A stretch of 63,636 nucleotides of DNA, the filler included, from Globobulimina sp. (Eukaryota), in the NCBI GenBank assembly GCA_003354225.1. It is 49 parts of 49 records of this genome, joined end to end, with 100 filler letters (N's around TTAATTAATTAA, not from the genome) between each part and the next. Parts side by side here need not be neighbours in the genome. Positions count along the whole stretch, not along the records: positions 39,037 to 40,236 come from PIVH01021112.1; 48 more parts are not named here. One strand, given 5' to 3'. A model generated the notes under the pieces. It was given only the letters and a program-made list of their open reading frames with translations, ran no database searches and had not been told where the DNA came from. This document shows positions 1,303 through 59,736 of this stretch, piece after piece (the first letter of the stretch is position 1; every line of letters starts with the position of its first letter). The position numbers and the translations under genes are program-made.

Positions 1303-1860
1303 TATACGTACATTTGAAAGAGCCAATGAAAAGTGCCAGACATGCTGCTCGTTACCTGGGAAGATACCTCGGAAGACCAGTCATTGCCCAGTATCGGATT
1401 GTGAAATATGACGGAAAAAATGTAACATTTTGGTATGATGATCACAAAAGTGGCCAACGAAAATATATGACCTTGCAAGCCGAACAGTTCATTGGCCGGT
1501 TGGTTATGCATATTCCTGTAAAAAATTTTCAGATGGTCAGACGGTATGGATTTTATGGTCGCCATGTGTCAGAGGCGATAAAGGCGATGGTTGAGGCGAC
1601 CAGGCGTATGGTACAACAGATATTTGAGTTTATTAAGGGGGGAAAGAAAAGCTGGCGAATGAGATTGATTGAGTCATTTCAACGAGATCCATTGAAGTGC
1701 CCATATTGTGGGGAAGAGATGGAACTCTGGGAAATATGGCATCCGGTTTATGGACAAATTTACGATTTCTACAGAGACGCACCTACTTATGTCCCGAAAG
1801 AAAAAGAAGAAAAAACAACGCAAATCACAAACGAAAAAACTGTTCAAATCCTCTTGCTTT
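1303..1860 (+). mobile_element. IS91-family (Y2 rolling-circle) transposase, C-terminal fragment
   Basis: RYLGRYLGRP (YxxRY), VTFWYDDH, FIGRLVMHIP..FQMVRRYGFY, WR..L...F.RDPLKCPYCG; the ORF tail after ~1860 is read-through into a chimeric segment. Confidence 0.88.
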
Positions 1861-1921
1861 GTAATCTACGCTTTGCTTTGAATTTTGTAATGTCATTCCA
1901 CCCATATTCTCATTTTTCAAA

Positions 1922-2170
1922 TCATAACAAATCTTTTAAATATTCATATAGCATTTTGGGAGTATCACGGATCGTTTCTGTATTTACCATCCTTCCATCT
2001 GCAATAAATTTAATTTGTTCCGGATCTAAAAAATCAATAATATCTTTTATAAATGGTGATGTCCCGAAACAGGCACTCGATTCTTGTTTTTTATAACATG
2101 ATGCAATAATTGATATCGATTCACATCTCTCTGATTTTTTAATTGAAAAATTTATGATTTCCAGGTCCAT
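1922..2170 (-). CDS. Small hypothetical protein, probably prokaryotic
   Basis: 82-aa ORF followed closely by GGGTGGA-ATG of another minus-strand ORF start (operon-like). Confidence 0.35.
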   Translation of the reverse strand: MDLEIINFSIKKSERCESISIIASCYKKQESSACFGTSPFIKDIIDFLDPEQIKFIADGRMVNTETIRDTPKMLYEYLKDLL

Positions 2171-2204
2171 TTTTGCCTGTTTATGTAAAGTAAATATTTA
2201 ATAT

Positions 2205-2504
2205 TTATGTTGAATGTATATATAAACATCTCACATAAAAATCTTTTATTTCTTGTTGTACGTCGTATATAATACTTGCATCTTTCTGATAATTTTGTAA
2301 TCGTTGGATATCTTTTTTAAATTTAGCAATGTCTCTGATTTGTTGGGCGTTAAGAAATTTATTCTCATTTGAATTTAAATTATGTTTTAATTCTTTTAAT
2401 ACAGTTTTATTTTTTTGGGCATTCTTTGAAACTAAACAAATTTCACAATATGACATATACTTATTATTATTCATTGTGCATAATTTACACATCCAGGCAC
2501 AGCC
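2205..2504 (-). CDS. RanBP2-type zinc-finger protein fragment (eukaryotic)
   Basis: W-x-C-xx-C-T-xx-N-x6-C-xx-C (WMCKLCTMNNNKYMSYCEIC). Confidence 0.65.
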   Translation of the reverse strand, partial: GCAWMCKLCTMNNNKYMSYCEICLVSKNAQKNKTVLKELKHNLNSNENKFLNAQQIRDIAKFKKDIQRLQNYQKDASIIYDVQQEIKDFYVRCLYIHST

Positions 2505-3421
2505 NNNNNNNNNNNNNNNNNNNNNNNNNNNNNNNNNNNNNNNNNNNNTTAATTAATTAANNNNNNNNNNNNNNNNNNNNNNNNNNNNNNNNNNNNNNNN
2601 NNNNTTCATTCATTGTTATAAATAAAATAAGTATAGAAAGACTTTAAATAATAACATATTCAAAAATGAAGACATTCTAAGCAACTTTTGGTGGTTGAAA
2701 TAAAAAGGTTAGAACTCCTAGTAAAGCAACTACGTTACACTTCGTTTGCTTTTTTACCCAGGAGGATAAATGGCTACTCAACAATGATCCAGTTAGAGCA
2801 CGGAAATTATTTCAAGAATTAAATGATTCTGGCTCTGATATCAATGATTTAGATGAAAAAGAGCAGGAATTGTGATTTTTACTCATTGTTGGAATATGAA
2901 TCCGTATTTGATTTGTTTTGTTTTCGTATACCTAGATATTTGATTTATCCCTACCGTATACCTCATTTTATTTTTATTTTGTGAATATTTTATGAATATT
3001 ATCAATTTTCATTTCATTTTATTTTATTGCTTAACAAAGTCAGTGTCCGTACATATTTAATTTGACTTTTGATGAATGTATATTTTATTTGAATTTATGA
3101 TTCCTTTTTTGGATGCTGACGATTGTTCTTAGCATTGGTTGGGTTTATATCTCTATATATATATTTTGTAGTTTATTTTGGATTTTATTCAAATTTGTAT
3201 AATATATTTTTCTTTTGTCAACAACCATTTAGTTTTTACCATTGTCAAATATATACTTCTTTTTTATTTTTTATATAGGTAATTATCTTTCTGATTGTTT
3301 GATTTTATTATTATTAATGTATTCTATCCTTCAAATATCTACAATATCCATTTACAGTGTTAGACTTTTCAGTTTTGGTTTTTCATTATTTGAAAACCAC
3401 TTAACTTTAATTTTAAAACTC

Positions 3422-3451
3422 CTGACGAAGACAGCATTTTGTCGAAACGTC
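3422..3451 (+). ncRNA. Minimal hammerhead-ribozyme-like core (Penelope-type), possibly degenerate
   Basis: CTGACGA-A-[GACA gcattt TGTC]-GAAA-CG-TC; stem I pairing is weak. Confidence 0.45.
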
Positions 3452-3617
3452 TATTTTTTTATTTGTTTAAAAGTAACCCTTCCTAGAAGCAAACACCTAA
3501 CTATCTACCTAAATAAATATTTTTTAAAATTATCACTGATTATTTTTTGTGTTCTACGCATATTCGCCCTATTAAGTATTAATTTGTAATATATCCTTTT
3601 TGCAGCTTCAGAAATTC

Positions 3618-19150: not shown

Positions 19151-20826
19151 TGCAAGTATCCTATTTTGTTATTTCTGGAGATGCTATTTTGGGTAATTAT
19201 GAATCGTATAAAATCAAATAATTATGAATCGTAGATTTTGGGATTTGTATGTTGGAATTATACGACATCGTTCTTTTTGAGGTCAATATTGGCAGTTGGT
19301 TATAACCTGAAGGCTGAATTAACAATTTTAATAACATTTTAACTCGTAATAGAAAATTAATGGAATGTTGTTTTGCCGTTATACTGCCGCACGATGTTTT
19401 TCCCAAAAATATCTTGCGCGATCTCNNNNNNNNNNNNNNNNNNNNNNNNNNNNNNNNNNNNNNNNNNNNTTAATTAATTAANNNNNNNNNNNNNNNNNNN
19501 NNNNNNNNNNNNNNNNNNNNNNNNNTGTACAATTCCCATAATATATCATCCACATTAATACAATACTCAGTCATATGATCATGACAATCATCTGCATCTG
19601 CGACATTTGGGAATAATTTATTATGATCGTCCTTGCAAACGCATGATGTCTGTCGCCAATATTCCTCCTGCAGTTGCAATGCATTATATTTACCATTTGC
19701 ATTCGTACCAATCGGATCGTACAATCCTTGCAACATTAATGATAATCGACGCCATACAATTGACACGCCACGACATTCCCCATTGGCGTCGATATCATTT
19801 GAATCTGAACTTTCGTCATAATAATCGTAGTCATAGCCATCATCATAATAATCATATTCATCTTCATCTTCATTCTCATCATCATCGTCGTCATCCAACA
19901 TAAATAATGCCAAATTTTGGTGCTCTTTCCAGCGCAATAACGTCAGGAATTGCTCATCTTATTTGTATATAATGTATTATATGTATTTATGTGCCAGTTA
20001 TATTAAAGATTAGTTGCAATTGGGACGCTACATACCGTTAAGCATGTAATTGTATTCATGTTTATATTCATCAGGTTCTCGGATCCATTCCTCTCGCAAT
20101 GGTATGATAATAATGGCGTTATAGAGTGAAATGGGCGGACAACGTTTCCACGAGTTCCATAAGCCGGTAATTGAGATAAATACGATTCTTTTCGGTGTTA
20201 TTGATGATACATCAATTGTGTGGGATATATTATACATTTTGTGGTAGTGTTGAAAGAATTCATCAAATGTTTGTGTTTTATTCTTGCAGCGTTTGACAAT
20301 TGTTTTACTTGTACCATCTTGGAAACTGATATTAATATTGGACTTGTTCGTATAATGTTTATTGAAAAAGGAGATATATGTTTATGTTGTACCTATTTTC
20401 ATTCCCCATATTTGTTTGAAAAAATAAAATAAAAGGTAAGTACTTAGGATTATGGAGGTATGTAAAGCTAGTTTCAAGAACCGTTTTTCCCAAAGATAAA
20501 AAAAAAAGAAAAACCGCTAGGTTGTTCTTATATTGGTTAATGTTCATATATTGGATTAATAACAGAATACAAACATTAAACTAGTTGGCGTATTTTTAGC
20601 GGATCTGCATTGTGGAATTTTCTTTAGTGTGAACTAGCATTGTGGAAGTCAAAAAGCATCCCCGCAAAGCGTTTTTCATGTTACAATGAAATGAAGTTTA
20701 ATGATTAACATGAAAAACTTTACCTCNNNNNNNNNNNNNNNNNNNNNNNNNNNNNNNNNNNNNNNNNNNNTTAATTAATTAANNNNNNNNNNNNNNNNNN
20801 NNNNNNNNNNNNNNNNNNNNNNNNNN

Positions 20827-22027
20827 TATTTATAAGATATCTCGCTAATAAATCCGATGCGTGTTTGTATCGATTATATACATTCACGAACGCGCGCCTT
20901 CCATTGCTAATAATCGTCGCAATCTGATGATTCCAATTCAAATTCCAATCAATCCACACACCGAGATATCTCACCGGCGAGTACTTTTTCGTAATTTCTT
21001 TATCGTCCATCATAATATCAAAGTACTTTTGTTTATGACGCTTTGCATCCAATTTGTCATCAATAACCATATAATTTTGCTTACTCGGCTGCAGAAATAG
21101 GCGCTTTTTCTTCGATATATAACTAATTAAATCGATAGCTTCCTGAATATTTTCCTTCAACTCCGCTCCAGAAACGCTTCCATCTGACACCAAATTGTTG
21201 TCGTCTGCGTATCCAATGAGTGTGAGTCCCAAATCCATCTCATTAATCACATCAAATTCCACTGTAAAAAATATAAACAATACAGGCGAAGGTGGCCAGC
21301 CTTGTGGCACTCCACAAATATCCTGACGCCACTCACTGTAAAATCCGTATACTTTAACTCTGCCCCACCGATATTCTAACGATACGTATAAATATTTCAG
21401 CGCAAATCCCGTAATACCAATATCCAATTCCATGCATTCTAAAATCATTCGATGCTGCAATGTATCAAACGCAGCCTTAAAATCAATCAGAATCAAATGC
21501 GTTTCCTTTCGTATCATCCTATTATTCCATATTAACTCCACCAAATAAGCAATGGTGTCGACACAACCAATGCCTTTAATAAATCCAAAGTGGCGAAATC
21601 TGATTATTTTCATCTTCATTCCATACGTAAGATACCTACCAGCCATCCATTTGTCAAATGGATTGCTGCAGCTCGACAGCAAAGAAACCGGCCGATAACT
21701 CTCCATATACTTTGCTTCTTTGCCTGCCTTCAAAATCACTGACACCTCCCTAATATTCATCGATTTCACTCTTAATCCCATAATAAATAAGATATTGTAA
21801 CATCGATACAGCCCTTCGTCCAAAATATCAATTCCTTTCTGAAGCAGTGTATAGTTTGATTTATCACTATTTCCTGCCTTGTTTCTGCTGAATGACATAA
21901 TGATTTTGCGGACTTCATCTAATCTCATAATCGAATTCATTTTCTTAGTTTCATCCATATGCAATTTCGTCCCAAATTTGGCTCGGTTCTTCTGTCGATA
22001 TCGTTTTATGATTTTATCAAACTTATC
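20827..22027 (-). mobile_element. Non-LTR retrotransposon ORF2 reverse transcriptase domain
   Basis: SYRPVSLLS, HFGFIKG, IDFKAAFDTL, GVPQGWPPSPVLF, YADD, RYLGVWID; open across the whole contig. Confidence 0.93.
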
Positions 22028-22609
22028 NNNNNNNNNNNNNNNNNNNNNNNNNNNNNNNNNNNNNNNNNNNNTTAATTAATTAANNNNNNNNNNNNNNNNN
22101 NNNNNNNNNNNNNNNNNNNNNNNNNNNCTCTAAATATATAGCAGGTTGATATATTAATATTTAGCATTCCAACCGACCAAAGCACCACTTCCATTGAAGA
22201 ACTATCAGACAGTATTAGAATTATATGGAATTATACGGCCAATTTCAATCGATACCTACATACAAAACGCGCCTATATTTGAAATATTACTTAAAGACAT
22301 ATTAGTTTATTGCATTAAATCAGAAACAATACGAATCCGTCAGATATCAATAACCAACAACAATACGGCTGTTCAATTTGATCCAAGTTATGTTCCAATT
22401 CATTATAACAAGTATTAATATTTGTTTCTATGTACAAAACATGATCAGATGACGCAATCCGTGTTGTATGGCGAGATTCGAGCGATGCAATGGCAAACTT
22501 GAGCGATTCGTCAAGCGAAGAATATCACGGTTATCAACAACAAACAACTTCAAACAATTCAAGCAGTGAAAATTGTATGTAAATATCTCAATACATATAC
22601 ATTTTTAAA

Positions 22610-23328: not shown

Positions 23329-23629
23329 NNNNNNNNNNNNNNNNNNNNNNNNNNNNNNNNNNNNNNNNNNNNTTAATTAATTAANNNNNNNNNNNNNNNN
23401 NNNNNNNNNNNNNNNNNNNNNNNNNNNNATACTGCATGTATGCCTTCACGCCTGACCGAACACTATGCCTTGTATATGAAGATTTTTACTTAGCCATCGG
23501 TTATACTTTTTACGAATTAATCGTTTCCTGAGCATTGAAATCTGTTGCCGTGAGAGCCGGTATCAGATATAGACAGACGTGTTGCATACAATTCAAATTC
23601 GTTGTTATATATAAAAAAATCATTCTGAT

Positions 23630-24199
23630 ATGACATATCCGGCAAATAAGAAAACCTGTATCGTTGTTTTTATCCTCATTTTTCTGCTCAACAACCTGTC
23701 TTTTGCACAGGACGCAATCCTGAAAAATTTGGTTGTTTCAAATAATGAAGAAGACCTCCTGTTTTTCCTTGATGTTGAAGGGGCTTTCAGGGAGGACATG
23801 GGAAAAGCGGTCCAGAGCGGAGTTCCGACAACGTTTTCATTTTTTGTCACACTTTACCAGGTTCGTGCTTTCTGGCTGGACAAGAAGATCGCCAGTGTCA
23901 ATATTACTCATACAATTAAGTATGATAACCTGAAGAATGAATATAGCGTTACGCGATCATGGGAAAACGACAAGCCGGTTGCTACACAGTCATTTGAAGA
24001 CGCAAAGAAACAAATGGGCAGGATTGAAAGTCTGAGAATTATTCAACTCGAAAGCTTGAGCAAAGGAAAGCAGTATCAAATACGTTCAAAAGCTGAGCTT
24101 AGCAAGATGACACTTCCCCTTTATCTGCATTATGTTCTTTTCTTCGTTTCTCTCTGGGACTTTGAAACAGATTGGTATACAATTGATTTTACATACTGA
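23630..24199 (+). CDS. DUF4390-family exported protein (bacterial)
   Basis: Signal peptide; AVQSGVPTTFSF, HTIKYDNLKNEY, WDFETDWY; lies upstream of an NtrY-like kinase, the usual arrangement. Confidence 0.8.
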   Translation: MTYPANKKTCIVVFILIFLLNNLSFAQDAILKNLVVSNNEEDLLFFLDVEGAFREDMGKAVQSGVPTTFSFFVTLYQVRAFWLDKKIASVNITHTIKYDNLKNEYSVTRSWENDKPVATQSFEDAKKQMGRIESLRIIQLESLSKGKQYQIRSKAELSKMTLPLYLHYVLFFVSLWDFETDWYTIDFTY

Positions 24200-24240
24200 G
24201 CGCTTGCGCAAAAACAGGTTGGAATTTTTCCGCAGGCAAT

Positions 24241-24629
24241 ATGCGTCTTTCCTACACATTAAACATTATGACAGTTGGCAGGTTGAAAAAAATAAATCCG
24301 TCTCTTACAGGAGATGAACGCCGAAGGCGAAAGCGCGAAGGCATTACCGTTATTGTTATCATTGCCGTTGTTGCCCTTCTGACCTTTGCAGAGACCCGGA
24401 TTATCCATTTTGGAGCAGACTTTCCTGTTTCCAATACAATATTGATGTTCATTCTGATCAACATCAATATGCTTCTACTAATATTATTAATATTTCTCGT
24501 TTTCAGAAATCTTGTAAAACTTCTTTATGACAGAAGACGAAAAGTCACCGGCGCGAAGTTGCGGACAAGACTTGTTGTTGCCTTTGTGTCCCTGTCATTG
24601 TTGCCGACAATTGTACTTTTCTTCTTTCC
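24241..24629 (+). CDS. NtrY-like membrane sensor histidine kinase N-terminus (bacterial)
   Basis: LININMLLLILLIFLVFRNLVKL..RRRKVTGAKLRTRLVVAF..LSLLPT. Confidence 0.8.
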
Positions 24630-24729
24630 NNNNNNNNNNNNNNNNNNNNNNNNNNNNNNNNNNNNNNNNNNNNTTAATTAATTAANNNNNNNNNNNNNNN
24701 NNNNNNNNNNNNNNNNNNNNNNNNNNNNN

Positions 24730-35136: not shown

Positions 35137-35520
35137 AAAAAAAATATTCTTCTTGTTGAAGATGAGATTGCTATCTCTGATGTGCAATATAAGGTATTGA
35201 CTCAAGATCCCTGTAATCACATTGTTGACGTTGCTAATAATGGACAGATTGCAATAGATTTATTTAATAGAAACCAATATGATTTAATAAGTTTGGATTA
35301 TATTCTTCCAGGAGGAATCAGTGGTATGGATGTTTATAATCATATAAGAAATAAAAACAAAACTATTCCGATTCTGTTTATTTCAGGTAATATTGAATTT
35401 TTAGAGTCAATAAAAGCGTTGAAACAAAACGACCTTTATATAGATCACCTATCAAAGCCATGTCAGAATAAGGATTATATTAGTGGTATCAATATACTTT
35501 TTGAAAACAATTCTGCTTAG
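35137..35520 (+). CDS. Response-regulator receiver domain (C-terminus of a bacterial hybrid kinase)
   Basis: ILLVEDE, YDLISLDYILPG, ILFISG, LSKP. Confidence 0.88.
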   Translation, partial: KKNILLVEDEIAISDVQYKVLTQDPCNHIVDVANNGQIAIDLFNRNQYDLISLDYILPGGISGMDVYNHIRNKNKTIPILFISGNIEFLESIKALKQNDLYIDHLSKPCQNKDYISGINILFENNSA

Positions 35521-36067
35521 ATAAATATTAAATTTTTTTATAATAATTAACTGTTCACTAATGGCATAATCGCTCAGGAGTCAAATCCTCCAATCCACCG
35601 AGCGTTTCTTTCACCAGTAATGATATTTGTCATTTTTTCAATCCACGATATATTGTATGGGTAAACCACAATTTTTCTTTGTCTGCTAAAGCGCTAAAGT
35701 TGACAATGTTCGGCATCAGCGTTGAGGGTCAAAACCTTCCGGTTCCCCTCCGGTCCTTTGAAACGTCTGGAATAGTCTGCCCAAAAGCTATATTGAATTG
35801 AAACGAAAGGTCTTTTGTCTGTTTTCGAAATTGCTATCAGAAAACTGTTATCTCAATTGCCAATTCAGAATTATTTTACTTTCAAGTGTGCGTTATGGTA
35901 CTCAATCTAGCCATGTCTATTGAAACTATACATCCGGTAATATTTCATAAAATCATAAAATACCGATGTTTTGTGATTGCTTGCATCAAAAGCATTCATT
36001 TGACAAATAATGTCCTTGTGCATAAATTATCGGCGATAAAAAAGTATAATTCAAATAAGGAGCTATT

Positions 36068-36336
36068 ATGAAAATCACCATATTACAGGGAAGCGCTCGA
36101 AAAAAAGGAAATACTGCCAAGGTGTTAGCTTGGGTTGAAGATGAACTAACAGGCATGGGGCATGAAGTTGATAGTATCTACCTGCATTCCAAAAACCTGA
36201 AAGGTTGCATGGGATGCGGAAAGTGTAAGGAACAAACTGATACTATTGGATGTGTTCAAAAAGATGATGTGCCTGATGTTTTGGAAAAAATGATCAATTC
36301 ACAATTGGTTATTTTTAGCTCTCCGCCATATTTCTG
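36068..36336 (+). CDS. Iron-sulfur flavoprotein / flavodoxin-family protein N-terminus (bacterial)
   Basis: GSARKKGNT, CMGCGKC...C, FSSPPYF; Shine-Dalgarno AAGGAG at 36057-36062. Confidence 0.88.
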
Positions 36337-39036: not shown

Positions 39037-39930
39037 TAAGTTAAGATGACAGAGGCAATGTATTGCATGGTATTGAATGGCTGCTCTCATTCTGGTTTGG
39101 TCGATGAAGCCATGTCCATTTTCGAGGACATTGTGGCTGAATTTGAAAATAATATGTCTTCGAATGTTGTAACGGCATTCATTGATTGTTTAGCAAGAAA
39201 AGGAAATCATTATTTGGCTCAAGCAGAAAATGTGTATGATACATATATTGGAAATAATATTCATATGTATTATAAATGTAAGTTACATGCACTTTTCTCG
39301 TTGCTGTCAGCGTGCCGCATTCATAATGATATGAGACGGAGTGAGCGCATTTTTGATAAAATAAACATGATTTTGAAGCAACATGAAATCAAAGACATTG
39401 ATAATGATACAGCAGCTTCTATGCATGTGCTGTTATCGAATATCTATGGACAGAATAAAGATTTTGAGAAAGTGGATAAAATTCGTAAGATAATGAAAGA
39501 GAAAAAGATTCGAAAAAAAGCTGGGATGTCATGGATTGAGATAGATGGGGAAACGCATACATTTTTAGCGAATGATAAATCACATCCAATGCATAATGAG
39601 ATAGCAAAAGAAAGAGAAATATTAAAAAATGAATTAAAAAATTATGGTCATGTATTTGATGCGAATGTAATTACGCGGGAATTGAATGAAAATGAAAATG
39701 TTGAGGATCATTTATGTGGTCACAGTGAAAAATCTGCTTTGATTTATGGATTAATAATGACATCGCCAGAAACACCACTTGTAATTGCAAAGAATTTAAG
39801 AGTTTGCAAAAATTGTCATTCTGCAACCAAATTAATATCAAAAATTAGGAAACGAAAATTATCCGTAAGAGATAAAAATAGATGGCATATATTTGAAAAT
39901 GGGCAATGTTCATGCAATGATTATTTTTGA
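39037..39930 (+). CDS. PPR protein with E and DYW cytidine-deaminase domains (RNA-editing-factor type), C-terminal part
   Basis: CSHSGLVDEA PPR, LLSACRIH, VLLSNIYG, AGMSWIEI, HSEK, KNLRVCKNCH, RD..RWHIFENGQCSCNDYF-stop. Confidence 0.95.
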
Positions 39931-43535: not shown

Positions 43536-43576
43536 GTTTTATCTAAAATACATACTATATATATTTAGATAAGATT

Positions 43577-44136
43577 ATGGCAACAGAAGTATCAGACAAC
43601 GATGAATGGATTTTACGTCCAGCCAAAACGAATTGGATCGCCACATTATCGAATAAAAATTACTGGGCATTTTATTTCCTCGTAATCGTAGCAATCTGTG
43701 TAGGCGGTATTGGTTACTTCGGCGAAGTGGCTCATTACGAAGTACCACCATTGTGTGATTTCGTAGGTCCTGATGGCAGTGTAATTATCTCTGCCAAGAG
43801 TATCAATCACGGCGAGGAAGTCTTCCATTTACGTGGATTAATGGCTTATGGCTCCTTTTTAGGTGACGGCTCAGAGCGTGGTCCAGATTATACCGCCGAA
43901 GCATTGCACGAATGGGCCCTTGGAATGTCCAAACATTACGAATCCAAATTAAAACACAAGACGCAGCACGACATCGAGGCCATTAAACCGCGCGTTCGCA
44001 GCGAATTACGTAACAACGCGTACAACAAAGAAAAGGATGTCATCGTCTTGAACACGGCACAGATATCGGCGTGGAAACGAGTGGCCACTTATTATCGCCG
44101 CATATTCGCCGGAGCTGAACAAGGAACGTTCACGTT
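43577..44136 (+). CDS. nor: Quinol-dependent nitric oxide reductase family (qNOR/NorZ; Nod-like N-terminus), N-terminal fragment
   Basis: TM helix + PP, GEEVFHLRGLMAYGSFLGDGSERGPDYTAEALH, ELRNNAY, YYRRIF; AT-rich upstream region with no Shine-Dalgarno. Confidence 0.9.
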
Positions 44137-48036: not shown

Positions 48037-48138
48037 NNNNNNNNNNNNNNNNNNNNNNNNNNNNNNNNNNNNNNNNNNNNTTAATTAATTAANNNNNNNN
48101 NNNNNNNNNNNNNNNNNNNNNNNNNNNNNNNNNNNNTA

Positions 48139-49336
48139 ACTGGAGGAATCAAATTAACGTCAGAAGGAACGTACCAAGATAATTTCATGGAATTTTGGAG
48201 AACTATGAGGAGATTGAAAATCCCGGATAATTGGGTTTGGGATTTCCCTATAAATGATGCGATATTGCAAATTTATATAATAAATTGCTGTTTTATTAGG
48301 AAGAAACCCAATGTATACCCTACAATAAGGAATAAAATGAGGGCTATTGATTGGGTGGCACAAATGTGTGGAGTCCAGCAATCCTGGTCTACAAACCCAT
48401 CGATTGCAGCGTTATTACAATTCGTTAAATTAAGGAATCCTGGGAAAGGAAGTGATACTTTGCCAACTACGGCTGACATTTTATTAAATATAATAGAATA
48501 TATATTAATGTTTAAAGTATACATTGGTTTGGATTTAAATAATAATGAAATAAAATTAAAATCGAATTGGTTGTCATTTGAGAAAATATGGAGAGATAAA
48601 TATAGATTATATTGGTATATGTATGCGATGTCTTTATTATTTGTAGGAATACTGGGATTGAGAGGAGCTGAGTGTTATGAAAATAGCAAAAAAGAGTATG
48701 AAGGTTATGGTATATATATAAGTGATATCCTTTTTTATTGGAAAGATCCAATATCGCATAGATTATACCCAAATAATGCATATTCGAAAGCATTTGATTA
48801 TTTAAATCACATAAGAGTAAGATTGAGGCATTCAAAAAATGCAAGGAAAGGACAGGATATTTATTTAAGAATTGGGAGCATGTATCAAAGGATTGAGCCC
48901 GTGTTAATAATTTATCATATATTTAATATACAGAGAAATGAATTAAAACAAATATTTAATCATAAATTAGAAAAGCGTTTCCTATTCCAAACGGAGGGAT
49001 GTAATTGGAAATTAACAGCGATTAAGAAACAATGGGTGAAATTGATGAAAGAAATGGGTTTCCTGGAACCAGCGAGAATGCGTTTCCATGGCTTAAGGAA
49101 GGGCTTTGCAACAACTTTATTGCAAAAAGGGGTTCCAATGAGTTTAATAGCATTTGGTGGAAGATGGAAGCTTTTGGCGGCAATATATCGATATTTAATA
49201 CATACACAAAATGATTTAATAGGTCTGACTGCCATATTTCTATATGGTGAAAAATTGAATGCATATAAAATTGATATGGACAATAATGAGTGTGATTTGG
49301 TACAACAATTACCAAATAATAAAATGAATGCATTGT
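48139..49336 (+). mobile_element. Tyrosine recombinase of DIRS/Ngaro-like (or Crypton-like) element
   Basis: LGLRGAE (R), HSKN (K), FHGLRKG (HxxR), GRW, IYRYL (Y); open across the whole contig. Confidence 0.85.
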
Positions 49337-53695: not shown

Positions 53696-53980
53696 GATTA
53701 GAGTTTTAGTGATCGTAATAAAAAATGTTCTGAGTGACTCCTCGAATCCCAAATGCCCAAACAAGCTATCTGCCTACCACCAAATGTAAAATCCAAAAAG
53801 AAGAGAAAACAGAAGATTTCATGTTGTAGAATATCAAAGTTATTAATTACTGACAATTCCAAAAATGCAAACAACAACAATGAAAATAAGAAATTACGGC
53901 GTTCAAAAAGGATACGATTCCTCCCATTAAATCATTGGGAAAATGAATTTATTCTAAGTGATCCCAAAAAGATGTTAACA

Positions 53981-54536
53981 ATGAAAGAGGTGCAGGAAAA
54001 TCTTTTGCCTAACAAAGCGCCTGATTTTCCGAATTTGGATATCTCTGGGATCAGCTTGTATTGTGAGGAAGTTGGTGGGGATTATTTTGATTATTTTAAA
54101 TTTTCTGACAATAAAGTTGGTATTGCACTGACAGATTCATCCGGACATGGTGTCGGTGCAGGGCTGCACATGACAACTATCCGAGCTTTTTTTCGATATG
54201 GTGCCGAGGAATATAACGGACCGGCATCATTGCTTCGTGCAGTGAATAAGCATATTACTCGGGACAGTTATGAAACCGGTCGGTTTGCAACTGCTTTTTT
54301 CGTGGAAATTGATCTTGAGAATCGGTTAATTAAATGGATACGGGCTGGTCATGAACCCGCCCTGTTTTACAGTCCTGGTACGGGTAAATTTCAAAAATTG
54401 CTTGGTGATGGAATGGCTTTAGGGGTGGATGCAGATACTCCAGTCACTGAACATGAAATAAAAGATTGGGAGAGTGGAAGTATTCTGCTCATCTATTCTG
54501 ATGGATTGAAAGAATCAAGAAATACCAAAGGTGAGA
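53981..54536 (+). CDS. SpoIIE/RsbU-type PP2C phosphatase domain (bacterial), fused chimerically to a eukaryotic ORF
   Basis: EVQENLLP, VGGDYFD, DSSGHG, FATAF, RAGHEP, YSDGLKE. Confidence 0.9.
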
Positions 54537-58436: not shown

Positions 58437-58536
58437 NNNNNNNNNNNNNNNNNNNNNNNNNNNNNNNNNNNNNNNNNNNNTTAATTAATTAANNNNNNNN
58501 NNNNNNNNNNNNNNNNNNNNNNNNNNNNNNNNNNNN

Positions 58537-59736
58537 GCACATTCCCCTTCAGACATTCCTTCTCCGACATGCCAATGGACATATGCTCGTTGTGAATACA
58601 TCAAGTCATATTTTCCTGTAATTCTCTCTGTAAACAAGCGGTTGATGCATGTATTATTTCCAACCATTGTCACTTGCGTATCTCCGCAATAAATATCATC
58701 TGATTCCAACTCCGTTATCTTATCATCAATATATTTAACAGACGGCTTATCACCACACCAATCCATCCAATTAATACGTTTCTTTTCTCCAATATATTTG
58801 ACACATTTATTTATATCATCCATACATTCACCAATACCCATCCCTCTATAATTGAACTTCATTGCCATATACCGATCTTCCGCAGGATCAAAATCAGCAC
58901 ATTTATGGAAAAAATAACTGCTGTTACAACAGTGGTCTGTCAATTCAAGAAGTGTCTCTTTAGAAATGACATGTTTGTCAACAACAGGGGTCATAGAAGT
59001 GGTCAGATAATGTATTCTTGGATACGGCACCATATCACAGGCAAATGTATTCATATCCTCTCCCAATCCAAATCGCCATGGGGCAGTAATGTTTGATATC
59101 ACTTTATTACACACAGAATTATAATGTCTATATCTTGGCGTTTTTATGTTCAATTTATTCCTACAAATACCATATAATTGGTCTCTGTGTGATCCATCAA
59201 CCAATGCATTGTTAGCAAAGCGTTTATTATCTCCAGCGGTGTTATCGATTTCTTATCATCCAACATTGCATGAAATCCGATTTTTGCTTTCTTGCGGTAA
59301 TCCACGGCAACTCTTTCCAGCGCAAGTGCACCAAAACCACCTCCGGTGCCGCCTGACAAACTGTTATTGATTATAAAGCCTTGGATGCTGTCACATTCTT
59401 CAACCATTAGTCTCAATGTATTGGTAAAGCGATCTATCAGTTCCTTGCCTGTGGTATAATGACCTCTGGCGTAGACAGTGGCTGTTCCGCAATGCCCGCT
59501 GATTAAGTAATTGCTGTTGATAACGTTGCTATATTTGAATAAATGCTGCAGCATATTTATGGAATGCGGCAATAGATCGATAAACAATGATCTTGCTGCA
59601 TATTTACCATTGCTGCGTTCCCTGAATGATGTATGTATTGATTGGTCATATTGTGTTTTGCATTCTTTTTCTCCGCTGATTGATATGCCGCGTTCAACAC
59701 AATTTTGCTCTAATGTGCTTTTCCCGATATTTATTC
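58537..59736 (-). CDS. Highly divergent alpha-tubulin-like gene with a frameshift near 59183
   Basis: AARSLFIDL, YARGHYTTGKE, SLSGGTGGGFG, MVPYPRIHY, YDLMYSQRAYVHWHVGEGMSEGE. Confidence 0.88.

Follow-up and report, generated by a model that had tools for sequence, protein, structure and literature searches.

The 3' part of a foraminiferan PPR-E-DYW gene lies at positions 39040-39930 (plus strand) of the window, which is the whole 63,636-nucleotide stretch of Globobulimina sp. DNA (assembly GCA_003354225.1, here G000) analysed in this work, made of contigs of about 1.2 kb strung together by N linkers. Its product, one of at least 34 DYW genes in this assembly, probably deaminates mitochondrial mRNA. 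Regarding the mitochondrial sequences, C-to-U (plus some A-to-G) editing in Foraminifera by this known kind of enzyme is likely, and we are highly confident that RNA editing occurs in this foraminiferan lineage.

Translation of the window revealed an open frame of 296 amino acids plus a stop codon, which corresponds to a PPR-E-DYW coding sequence. The gene is located on the contig at 39037-40236 (G000:C21112) and starts right at the contig edge, which cuts its 5' end; the first three bases of the contig (39037-39039, plus strand) are an in-frame TAA, which could reflect an error at the contig end, an intron or a genuine stop codon. The homologues P0002 and P0003 extend further upstream, and a search for an upstream contig overlapping 39037-40236 to extend the 5' end found none. 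Pfam matches, all above the curated cut-offs, were obtained for PPR (residues 7-32, E 1.1e-9), the E motif (residues 119-167, E 2e-10), E+ (residues 172-188) and DYW_deaminase (residues 203-296, E 9.2e-30). The AlphaFold model (mean pLDDT 95.4, 66-row alignment) presents four helix pairs before the deaminase fold, the long PLS-type array being cut off at the contig edge. When this model was searched with Foldseek, the synthetic PPR-DYW protein 9kfx was the first match (TM 0.84, E 5.9e-21, all 296 residues), with OTP86 and DYW1 also top-ranked, and 9kfx aligns with the protein from end to end in sequence as well (E 2e-62).

All the domain features are on the plus strand. The last two PPR helix pairs (residues 5-35 and 41-71; 39052-39252) were located by Pfam PPR, the model helices and the 9kfx alignment. 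They are followed by two pairs (residues 78-114 and 122-154; 39271-39501), located by the Pfam E motif and the model and labelled E1 and E2 after the plant scheme. The PG-box variant AGMSWIEI and the E+ region occupy 39520-39603 (sequence, Pfam and 9kfx alignment), and the gating-domain helix and beta-finger region 39604-39720, as judged from the alignment with OTP86 (7o4e), the model helix at residues 185-201 and the definition given in the accessible text of PMC7611903.

The HxE(x)nCxxC site is kept together with its catalytic glutamate, since H228, E230, C256 and C259 correspond to H892, E894, C920 and C923 of OTP86, where the zinc ligands (H892, C920, C923), the catalytic E894 and the gating domain have been described (PMC7611903, accessible text). 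The HSE motif (39721-39729) holds the zinc ligand His228 and Glu230, and CKNCH (39805-39819) holds the Zn1 ligands Cys256 and Cys259 and the Zn2 ligand His260. The remaining Zn2 ligands, His283, Cys290 and Cys292, stand with the terminal DYF at 39886-39927, so that the second zinc site (two His, two Cys) is also kept; all these positions were assigned by alignment to OTP86. K251 and L253 match OTP86 residues as well, and the residue after the glutamate is Lys instead of Arg. Hence, the elements named in the first-pass annotation (PPR, E domain, AGMSWIEI, HSE, CKNCH and CSCNDYF) were all recovered in the sequence and by Pfam above cut-off; its term "intact" suits the deaminase but not the gene, whose 5' end is lost at the contig edge with the in-frame TAA. 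The last residue is Phe (DYF) where plant enzymes have Trp, and the box reads AGMSW, not PG. As far as the accessible text of the two sources goes, the terminal Trp is essential in plant DYW1 and PPR65 (PMC7611903), and both the PG box and the terminal tripeptide vary outside plants (PMC13386178).

This gene belongs to a large family. The count of paralogues that had been proposed as a check gave at least 34 matches to the Pfam DYW family in the assembly, and at least 26 to this particular DYW domain, which fall into three types. The plant-like type has two copies, including the gene at 39040-39930; the second type (about 13) is altered in its PG box and usually ends in a DYY/EYY/DFY-type tripeptide; and the third, comprising the remainder, keeps HxE, CxxCH and usually the tail cysteines, the tripeptide being absent. 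The second type was also found in Nonionella (3 of the 10 profile matches looked up), the top match being a papaya protein. Several host DYW loci share contigs with ordinary eukaryotic genes, and two paralogues are unbroken frames of 1241 amino acids. Repeat triplets with a spacing of 99-105 amino acids are clear in four of the ten paralogues tested (L039, L094, L047 and L045), while L040 and L041 show a fainter pattern and none was seen in L037, L048, L086 and L044. Most of the more complete paralogues begin with a basic stretch poor in acidic residues, as measured by residue counts and not by a targeting predictor, while the N-terminus of the 39040-39930 gene is missing.

Some members of the family deserve a separate description. 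The loci L015, L017-L026, L086, L089, L091 and L093 form a long-branch DYW class with neither PG box nor tripeptide, whose sites read HSE or HAE and whose tails are of the kind CSC, CxLC or CxxC. An Atlas search with a tail-less paralogue as query retrieved DYW clusters and nothing else. Adjoining PPR genes were observed head to head in L043 and in tandem in L008, an arrangement that suggests local duplication.

If the family functions as in plants, these nuclear PPR-DYW proteins would be imported into mitochondria, where the PPR array would bind upstream of the target C and so choose the site, and the zinc-dependent deaminase would convert C to U, restoring conserved residues. Such a family would repair dozens of codons per gene. 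A close paralogue, L094 1-1833 (G000:C5329), has a long triplet array that ends inside E1 and carries no deaminase, which makes it, on sequence grounds, a candidate for a factor that recognises sites but depends on a DYW partner acting in trans. The 39040-39930 protein may also act in trans for deaminase-less PPR-E proteins of this kind, because it is the most plant-like copy and is conserved in other foraminifera.

It could be argued that editing is real and that the 39040-39930 copy is nevertheless a broken gene, a non-catalytic helper, or a protein acting on nuclear or kleptoplast RNA. This would fit with the in-frame TAA at the contig edge, the missing N-terminus that leaves the targeting unreadable, the Phe in place of the terminal Trp, and the existence of at least 33 other DYW genes that could serve instead. 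However, all catalytic and zinc residues are kept across the unbroken frame of 296 residues, and orthologues with 64-74% identity are present in the EukProt sets of two other foraminifera. Moreover, a non-Trp ending is the norm in this family, since 13 further paralogues end in Tyr (11) or Trp (2). Such a reading is therefore considered unlikely, and the analysis favours the protein being one of the active editing enzymes, which we regard as probable.

The need for such enzymes was examined in mitochondrial genes. Family searches, a primer pattern and a foraminiferan cox1 protein used as query found no foraminiferan cox1 in the assembly, and family searches for host cob, nad7, nad1, nad2/4/5 and cox3 gave no foraminiferan gene; they returned only nitric-oxide reductases and foreign or chimeric pieces. 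With no foraminiferan cox1 found in the assembly, the link between editing and this host rests on sequencing runs that contain both the DYW contig and cox1. When the COI primers in Table 1 of PMC8589990 are translated in frame, they deviate from the standard cox1 motifs at C/T and A/G positions. A pattern derived from one of these primers, which favours the unmended form of the gene, retrieved 22 metagenome loci, 20 of them with foraminiferan-type cox1; 18 of the 22 were used, leaving out L070 and L073 (chance matches to the primer pattern) and L062 and L071 (short or chimeric).

Of the 252 sites conserved in a motif-selected reference of 29 non-foraminiferan cox1 proteins, L067 has a different residue at 101. 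These departures would be mended by C>T in 27 cases, A>G in nine, T>C in five and G>A in one, the other single types accounting for 1-9 each, and the C>T excess appeared in all eight loci tallied. Among the residues affected are the invariant Trp that precedes the GHH pair and, at several loci, the HPEVY tyrosine. Near-identical cox1 proteins exist in the protein database in both mended and unmended form. One such comparison is that of L057 DNA with the protein P0170, with 32 differences in 328 residues, of which 28 are C>T, three A>G and one other, with none in the reverse direction. In the wider tallies, whose cells are not independent events and in which "foraminiferan-like" was assigned by similarity, 88 foraminiferan-like cox1 proteins showed 413 C-to-U-mendable departures versus 57 in the mirror direction, and 120 atp1 proteins showed 286 versus 42, while the outgroup of 29 cox1 proteins gave 12 versus 26. 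Neither comparison showed a signal of reverse U-to-C editing of the DYW:KP kind (no T>C among the 32 differences of the L057/P0170 pair; mirror 57 versus 413).

About 30-43 C positions are predicted for editing in cox1, all of them at codon positions 1 and 2, which are the only positions that the method can see. A pyrimidine precedes 25 of 30 predicted sites versus 56 of 95 kept C (p=0.016), and a pyrimidine at -1 is the plant preference too; avoidance of G at -1 was weak (p=0.037, 0.071 and 0.054 in three comparisons sharing sites). Four-fold third positions are poor in C (10 of 136), so a general drift to C is not indicated. No general A-to-G bias was found in cox1 (127 versus 119) or atp1 (146 versus 157), and the A-to-G changes thus rest on a few specific sites: in cox1 an Arg to Gly in GHPE and two Ile to Val, and in atp1 an Arg to Gly. 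A search for ADAR/ADAT families gave no match, and it was uninformative since its controls were blank too.

Two further observations concern these genes. In L066 (4118-5344) the atp1 frame has many C-to-U-mendable codons and reads TDRQ for the conserved TDGQ, a substitution that recurs in many foraminiferan-like atp1 proteins and is a candidate A-to-G site. In L059, L064 and L076 there is another, distant type of cox1, which has 73-75% identity to the rest and matches the published miliolid primer; here too C>T is in excess, accounting for 14 of the 34 departures of L076.

Four of the ten sequencing runs that match the DYW contig were compared on L067:470-1580, with X6 and X7 being guessed to be RNA, as no type is on record. 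X1 and X3, likely from the source sample, present the same 16 species differences from L067 and are otherwise unmended; these differences are symmetric, with five C>T and five T>C among the 16. Because X1 and X3 are unmended apart from them, a cox1 that would require about 35 changes is present in the same sample as the DYW gene. Run X6 has the same cox1 type as the host runs and the same 16 differences, and at 1377-1486 it splits into two contigs. In one of these (depth 23 of 61), G replaces A at 1407 and 1443, and T replaces C at 1416, 1422 and 1456. These are exactly the five codons predicted in these 110 bases by P0170 and P0132, which may derive from RNA or from DNA; the probability of a random pick hitting all five sites is about 6e-5. 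Each of these changes restores the outgroup residue, none is silent, and X1 and X3 carry none of them. Outside this 110-base bubble, X6 shows the unmended form only. In X7, a single contig, one of the ten remaining predicted codons is changed, together with an unpredicted A>G at 1029. The run X1 also has minor contigs on L067:497-605, 1095-1189 and 1326-1393, with 12-13 other letters and a depth of 1700-3600, which could be another species, nuclear copies or mended forms.

These data bear on the opposite explanation, in which there is no editing, the cox1 forms are DNA variants (other species, heteroplasmy or nuclear copies), the odd residues are tolerated and the DYW family does something else. 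The contigs of the runs guessed to be RNA are mostly unmended, as such variants would allow, and the three minor X1 contigs can be read in the same way. Mended cox1 forms are also found on some contigs of 5-6 kb and part-mended ones on contigs of 16-20 kb, and no more than two mendable departures were counted in 62 of the 89 foraminiferan-like cox1 rows; these 62 may be RNA-derived or come from lineages editing little. Nevertheless, the species differences are symmetric, whereas all five changes of the X6 bubble are restoring and none silent. Furthermore, 31 of the 32 changes between L057 and P0170 run in one direction, the scarcity of C at four-fold third positions argues against drift, and residues as invariant as the Trp before the GHH pair are hit. 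An absence of editing is thus held to be improbable. The suggestion of the first-pass annotation that this host may edit mitochondrial RNA is favoured by the departures, the L057/P0170 pair and the X6 bubble, and it is weakened by the unmended state of most X6 and X7 contigs and by the guessed RNA status of both runs. Its alternative of kleptoplast RNA is not required to account for these data.

Concerning the origin of the gene, the best database matches comprise proteins 57-61% identical to the 296-residue query and two EukProt entries, which are the nearest named relatives. Identity is 74% to the entry from Bolivina argentea, aligned over 57% of the query, and 64% to that from Nonionella stella, aligned over 67%, while rotifer proteins reach 36-40% and named plant proteins 34-39%, so that the search for near-identity to a land-plant or algal gene found nothing above 39% among named plants. 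A quick maximum-likelihood search with 90 DYW regions, a set without paradinid sequences, groups the protein with Bolivina, Nonionella and three further proteins (SH-aLRT 95) and separates it from both land plants and rotifers; it puts the host DYW genes in three places, so that it does not show a single origin. The GC3 of the gene (0.27) lies inside the range of ten host frames (0.20-0.41), and a paralogue 68% identical in DNA is present on another host contig. Contamination by a land plant or alga, which the foreign contigs in the assembly (with bacterial genes and presumably a ciliate-like cox1 and a diatom-like cob) might bring to mind, is very improbable and largely refuted by the low identity to named plants, the foraminiferan nearest relatives, the position in the tree and the paralogue on a second host contig. 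The gene at 39040-39930 is, from its sequence, a genuine host gene of the known PPR-E-DYW family. Hence, the rhizarian host proposed earlier was borne out and narrowed to Foraminifera, with the host-like composition of the DNA and the proposed DYW phylogeny pointing the same way; the earlier case against plant contamination stands by the tree, the paralogue family and the GC3, but not by the DYF ending, which also occurs in non-foraminiferan matches.

The protein shares with the land-plant PLS-class PPR-E-DYW factors (OTP86, DYW1 and PpPPR56; 7o4e/7o4f, 7w86 and 9kfx) the domain order and the fold (TM 0.84 to 9kfx), the HxE..CxxC motif, the second zinc site and the gating region, together with triplets of about 100 amino acids that here are seen in the paralogues. 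Both cases also have in common C-to-U changes that restore residues through codon positions 1 and 2, as predicted for the foraminiferan genes, and the pyrimidine at -1. In contrast to these factors, the foraminiferan protein, which is at most 39% identical to named plant proteins, has AG for PG, a DYF end and short insertions between helices, and its host has two further DYW classes with altered or lost PG box and tail, and a few A-to-G sites.

Among protists, Naegleria and Acrasis have few editing sites in comparison with the 30-43 or so C positions predicted in foraminiferan cox1. Like the foraminiferan case, they show expanded PPR-DYW families and mitochondrial C-to-U editing, as cited in the accessible parts of PMC11946409 and of the diplonemid preprint mentioned below. 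In Rhizaria, a different group, the paradinids (Ascetosporea), has already been reported to have PPR-DYW genes and an edited mitochondrial transcriptome, with both C-to-U and A-to-I changes (Yabuki et al. 2025, PMC11946409, accessible text). The two cases have in common the rhizarian host, PPR-DYW genes, C-to-U plus A-to-I changes and their restoring, non-synonymous nature. However, A-to-I is dominant in paradinids, with 338 and 306 A sites versus 20 and 21 C sites, one to three DYW sequences and an ADAR-like gene (PMC11946409, same text), whereas in the foraminiferan case C-to-U is dominant (28 versus 3 in part of cox1) and there are at least 34 DYW loci. The diplonemid PPRD1, a protist mitochondrial PPR-DYW protein too, has been associated with the deamination of C as well as A (Valach et al. 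2026, bioRxiv 10.64898/2026.09.04.749523, accessible text); there is only one such gene, its array is of the P type and the sites are clustered, in contrast to the large family, long triplet arrays and scattered sites of foraminifera. A large foraminiferan editing system could tentatively be proposed, with tens of sites per gene, species-specific sites and its own expanded PPR-DYW family, in which a divergent DYW class, and not ADAR, would make the A-to-I changes.

No title or abstract reporting substitution editing or DYW genes in foraminifera was found in the literature search, which covered non-subscription papers. The accessible parts of PMC8589990 and PMC10127745 treat foraminiferan mitochondrial genes as divergent and mention possible RNA modification only for a miliolid cox1 frameshift; in that of PMC11946409 foraminifera are not mentioned. 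The accessible part of PMC13386178 counts 31 rhizarian DYW domains, which may already include the foraminiferan genes, and those of PMC13746701 and PMC10809612 contributed nothing more. Neither the DYW family nor editing was thus found in print for Foraminifera by this search, and the evidence for editing, though strong, falls just short of what matched RNA and DNA would provide.

If editing is real, about a tenth of the cox1 residues would be wrong in proteins translated from foraminiferan mitochondrial DNA, and the long branch seen in mitochondrial trees would be partly artefactual. COI barcodes obtained from RNA and DNA of one species would then be about 3% apart, exceeding the COI species threshold of 0.7% given in the accessible text of PMC8589990. 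A major marine phylum would also join the small number of lineages other than plants in which plant-type editing is extensive, and the natural DYW variants (DYF or DYY tails, or tail-less) would be available for testing which residues the deaminase needs.

Other features were observed in the assembly and the window. Nitric-oxide reductase genes are known from denitrifying foraminifera, and several NorB-type copies were found on host-like contigs (window 43547-44134; L027 and L029-L035), one of them full length (799 amino acids). Foreign contigs, some with bacterial genes, include L028, L036 and L052 and the window segments 23615-24632, 35137-36334 and 53738-54536. Two highly divergent tubulin-like frames (58485-59252 and 59150-59736) are located on neighbouring contigs. 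Finally, reverse-transcriptase-like and tyrosine-recombinase-like frames, recognised by eye at 20771-22030 and 48137-49336, are probably mobile elements.
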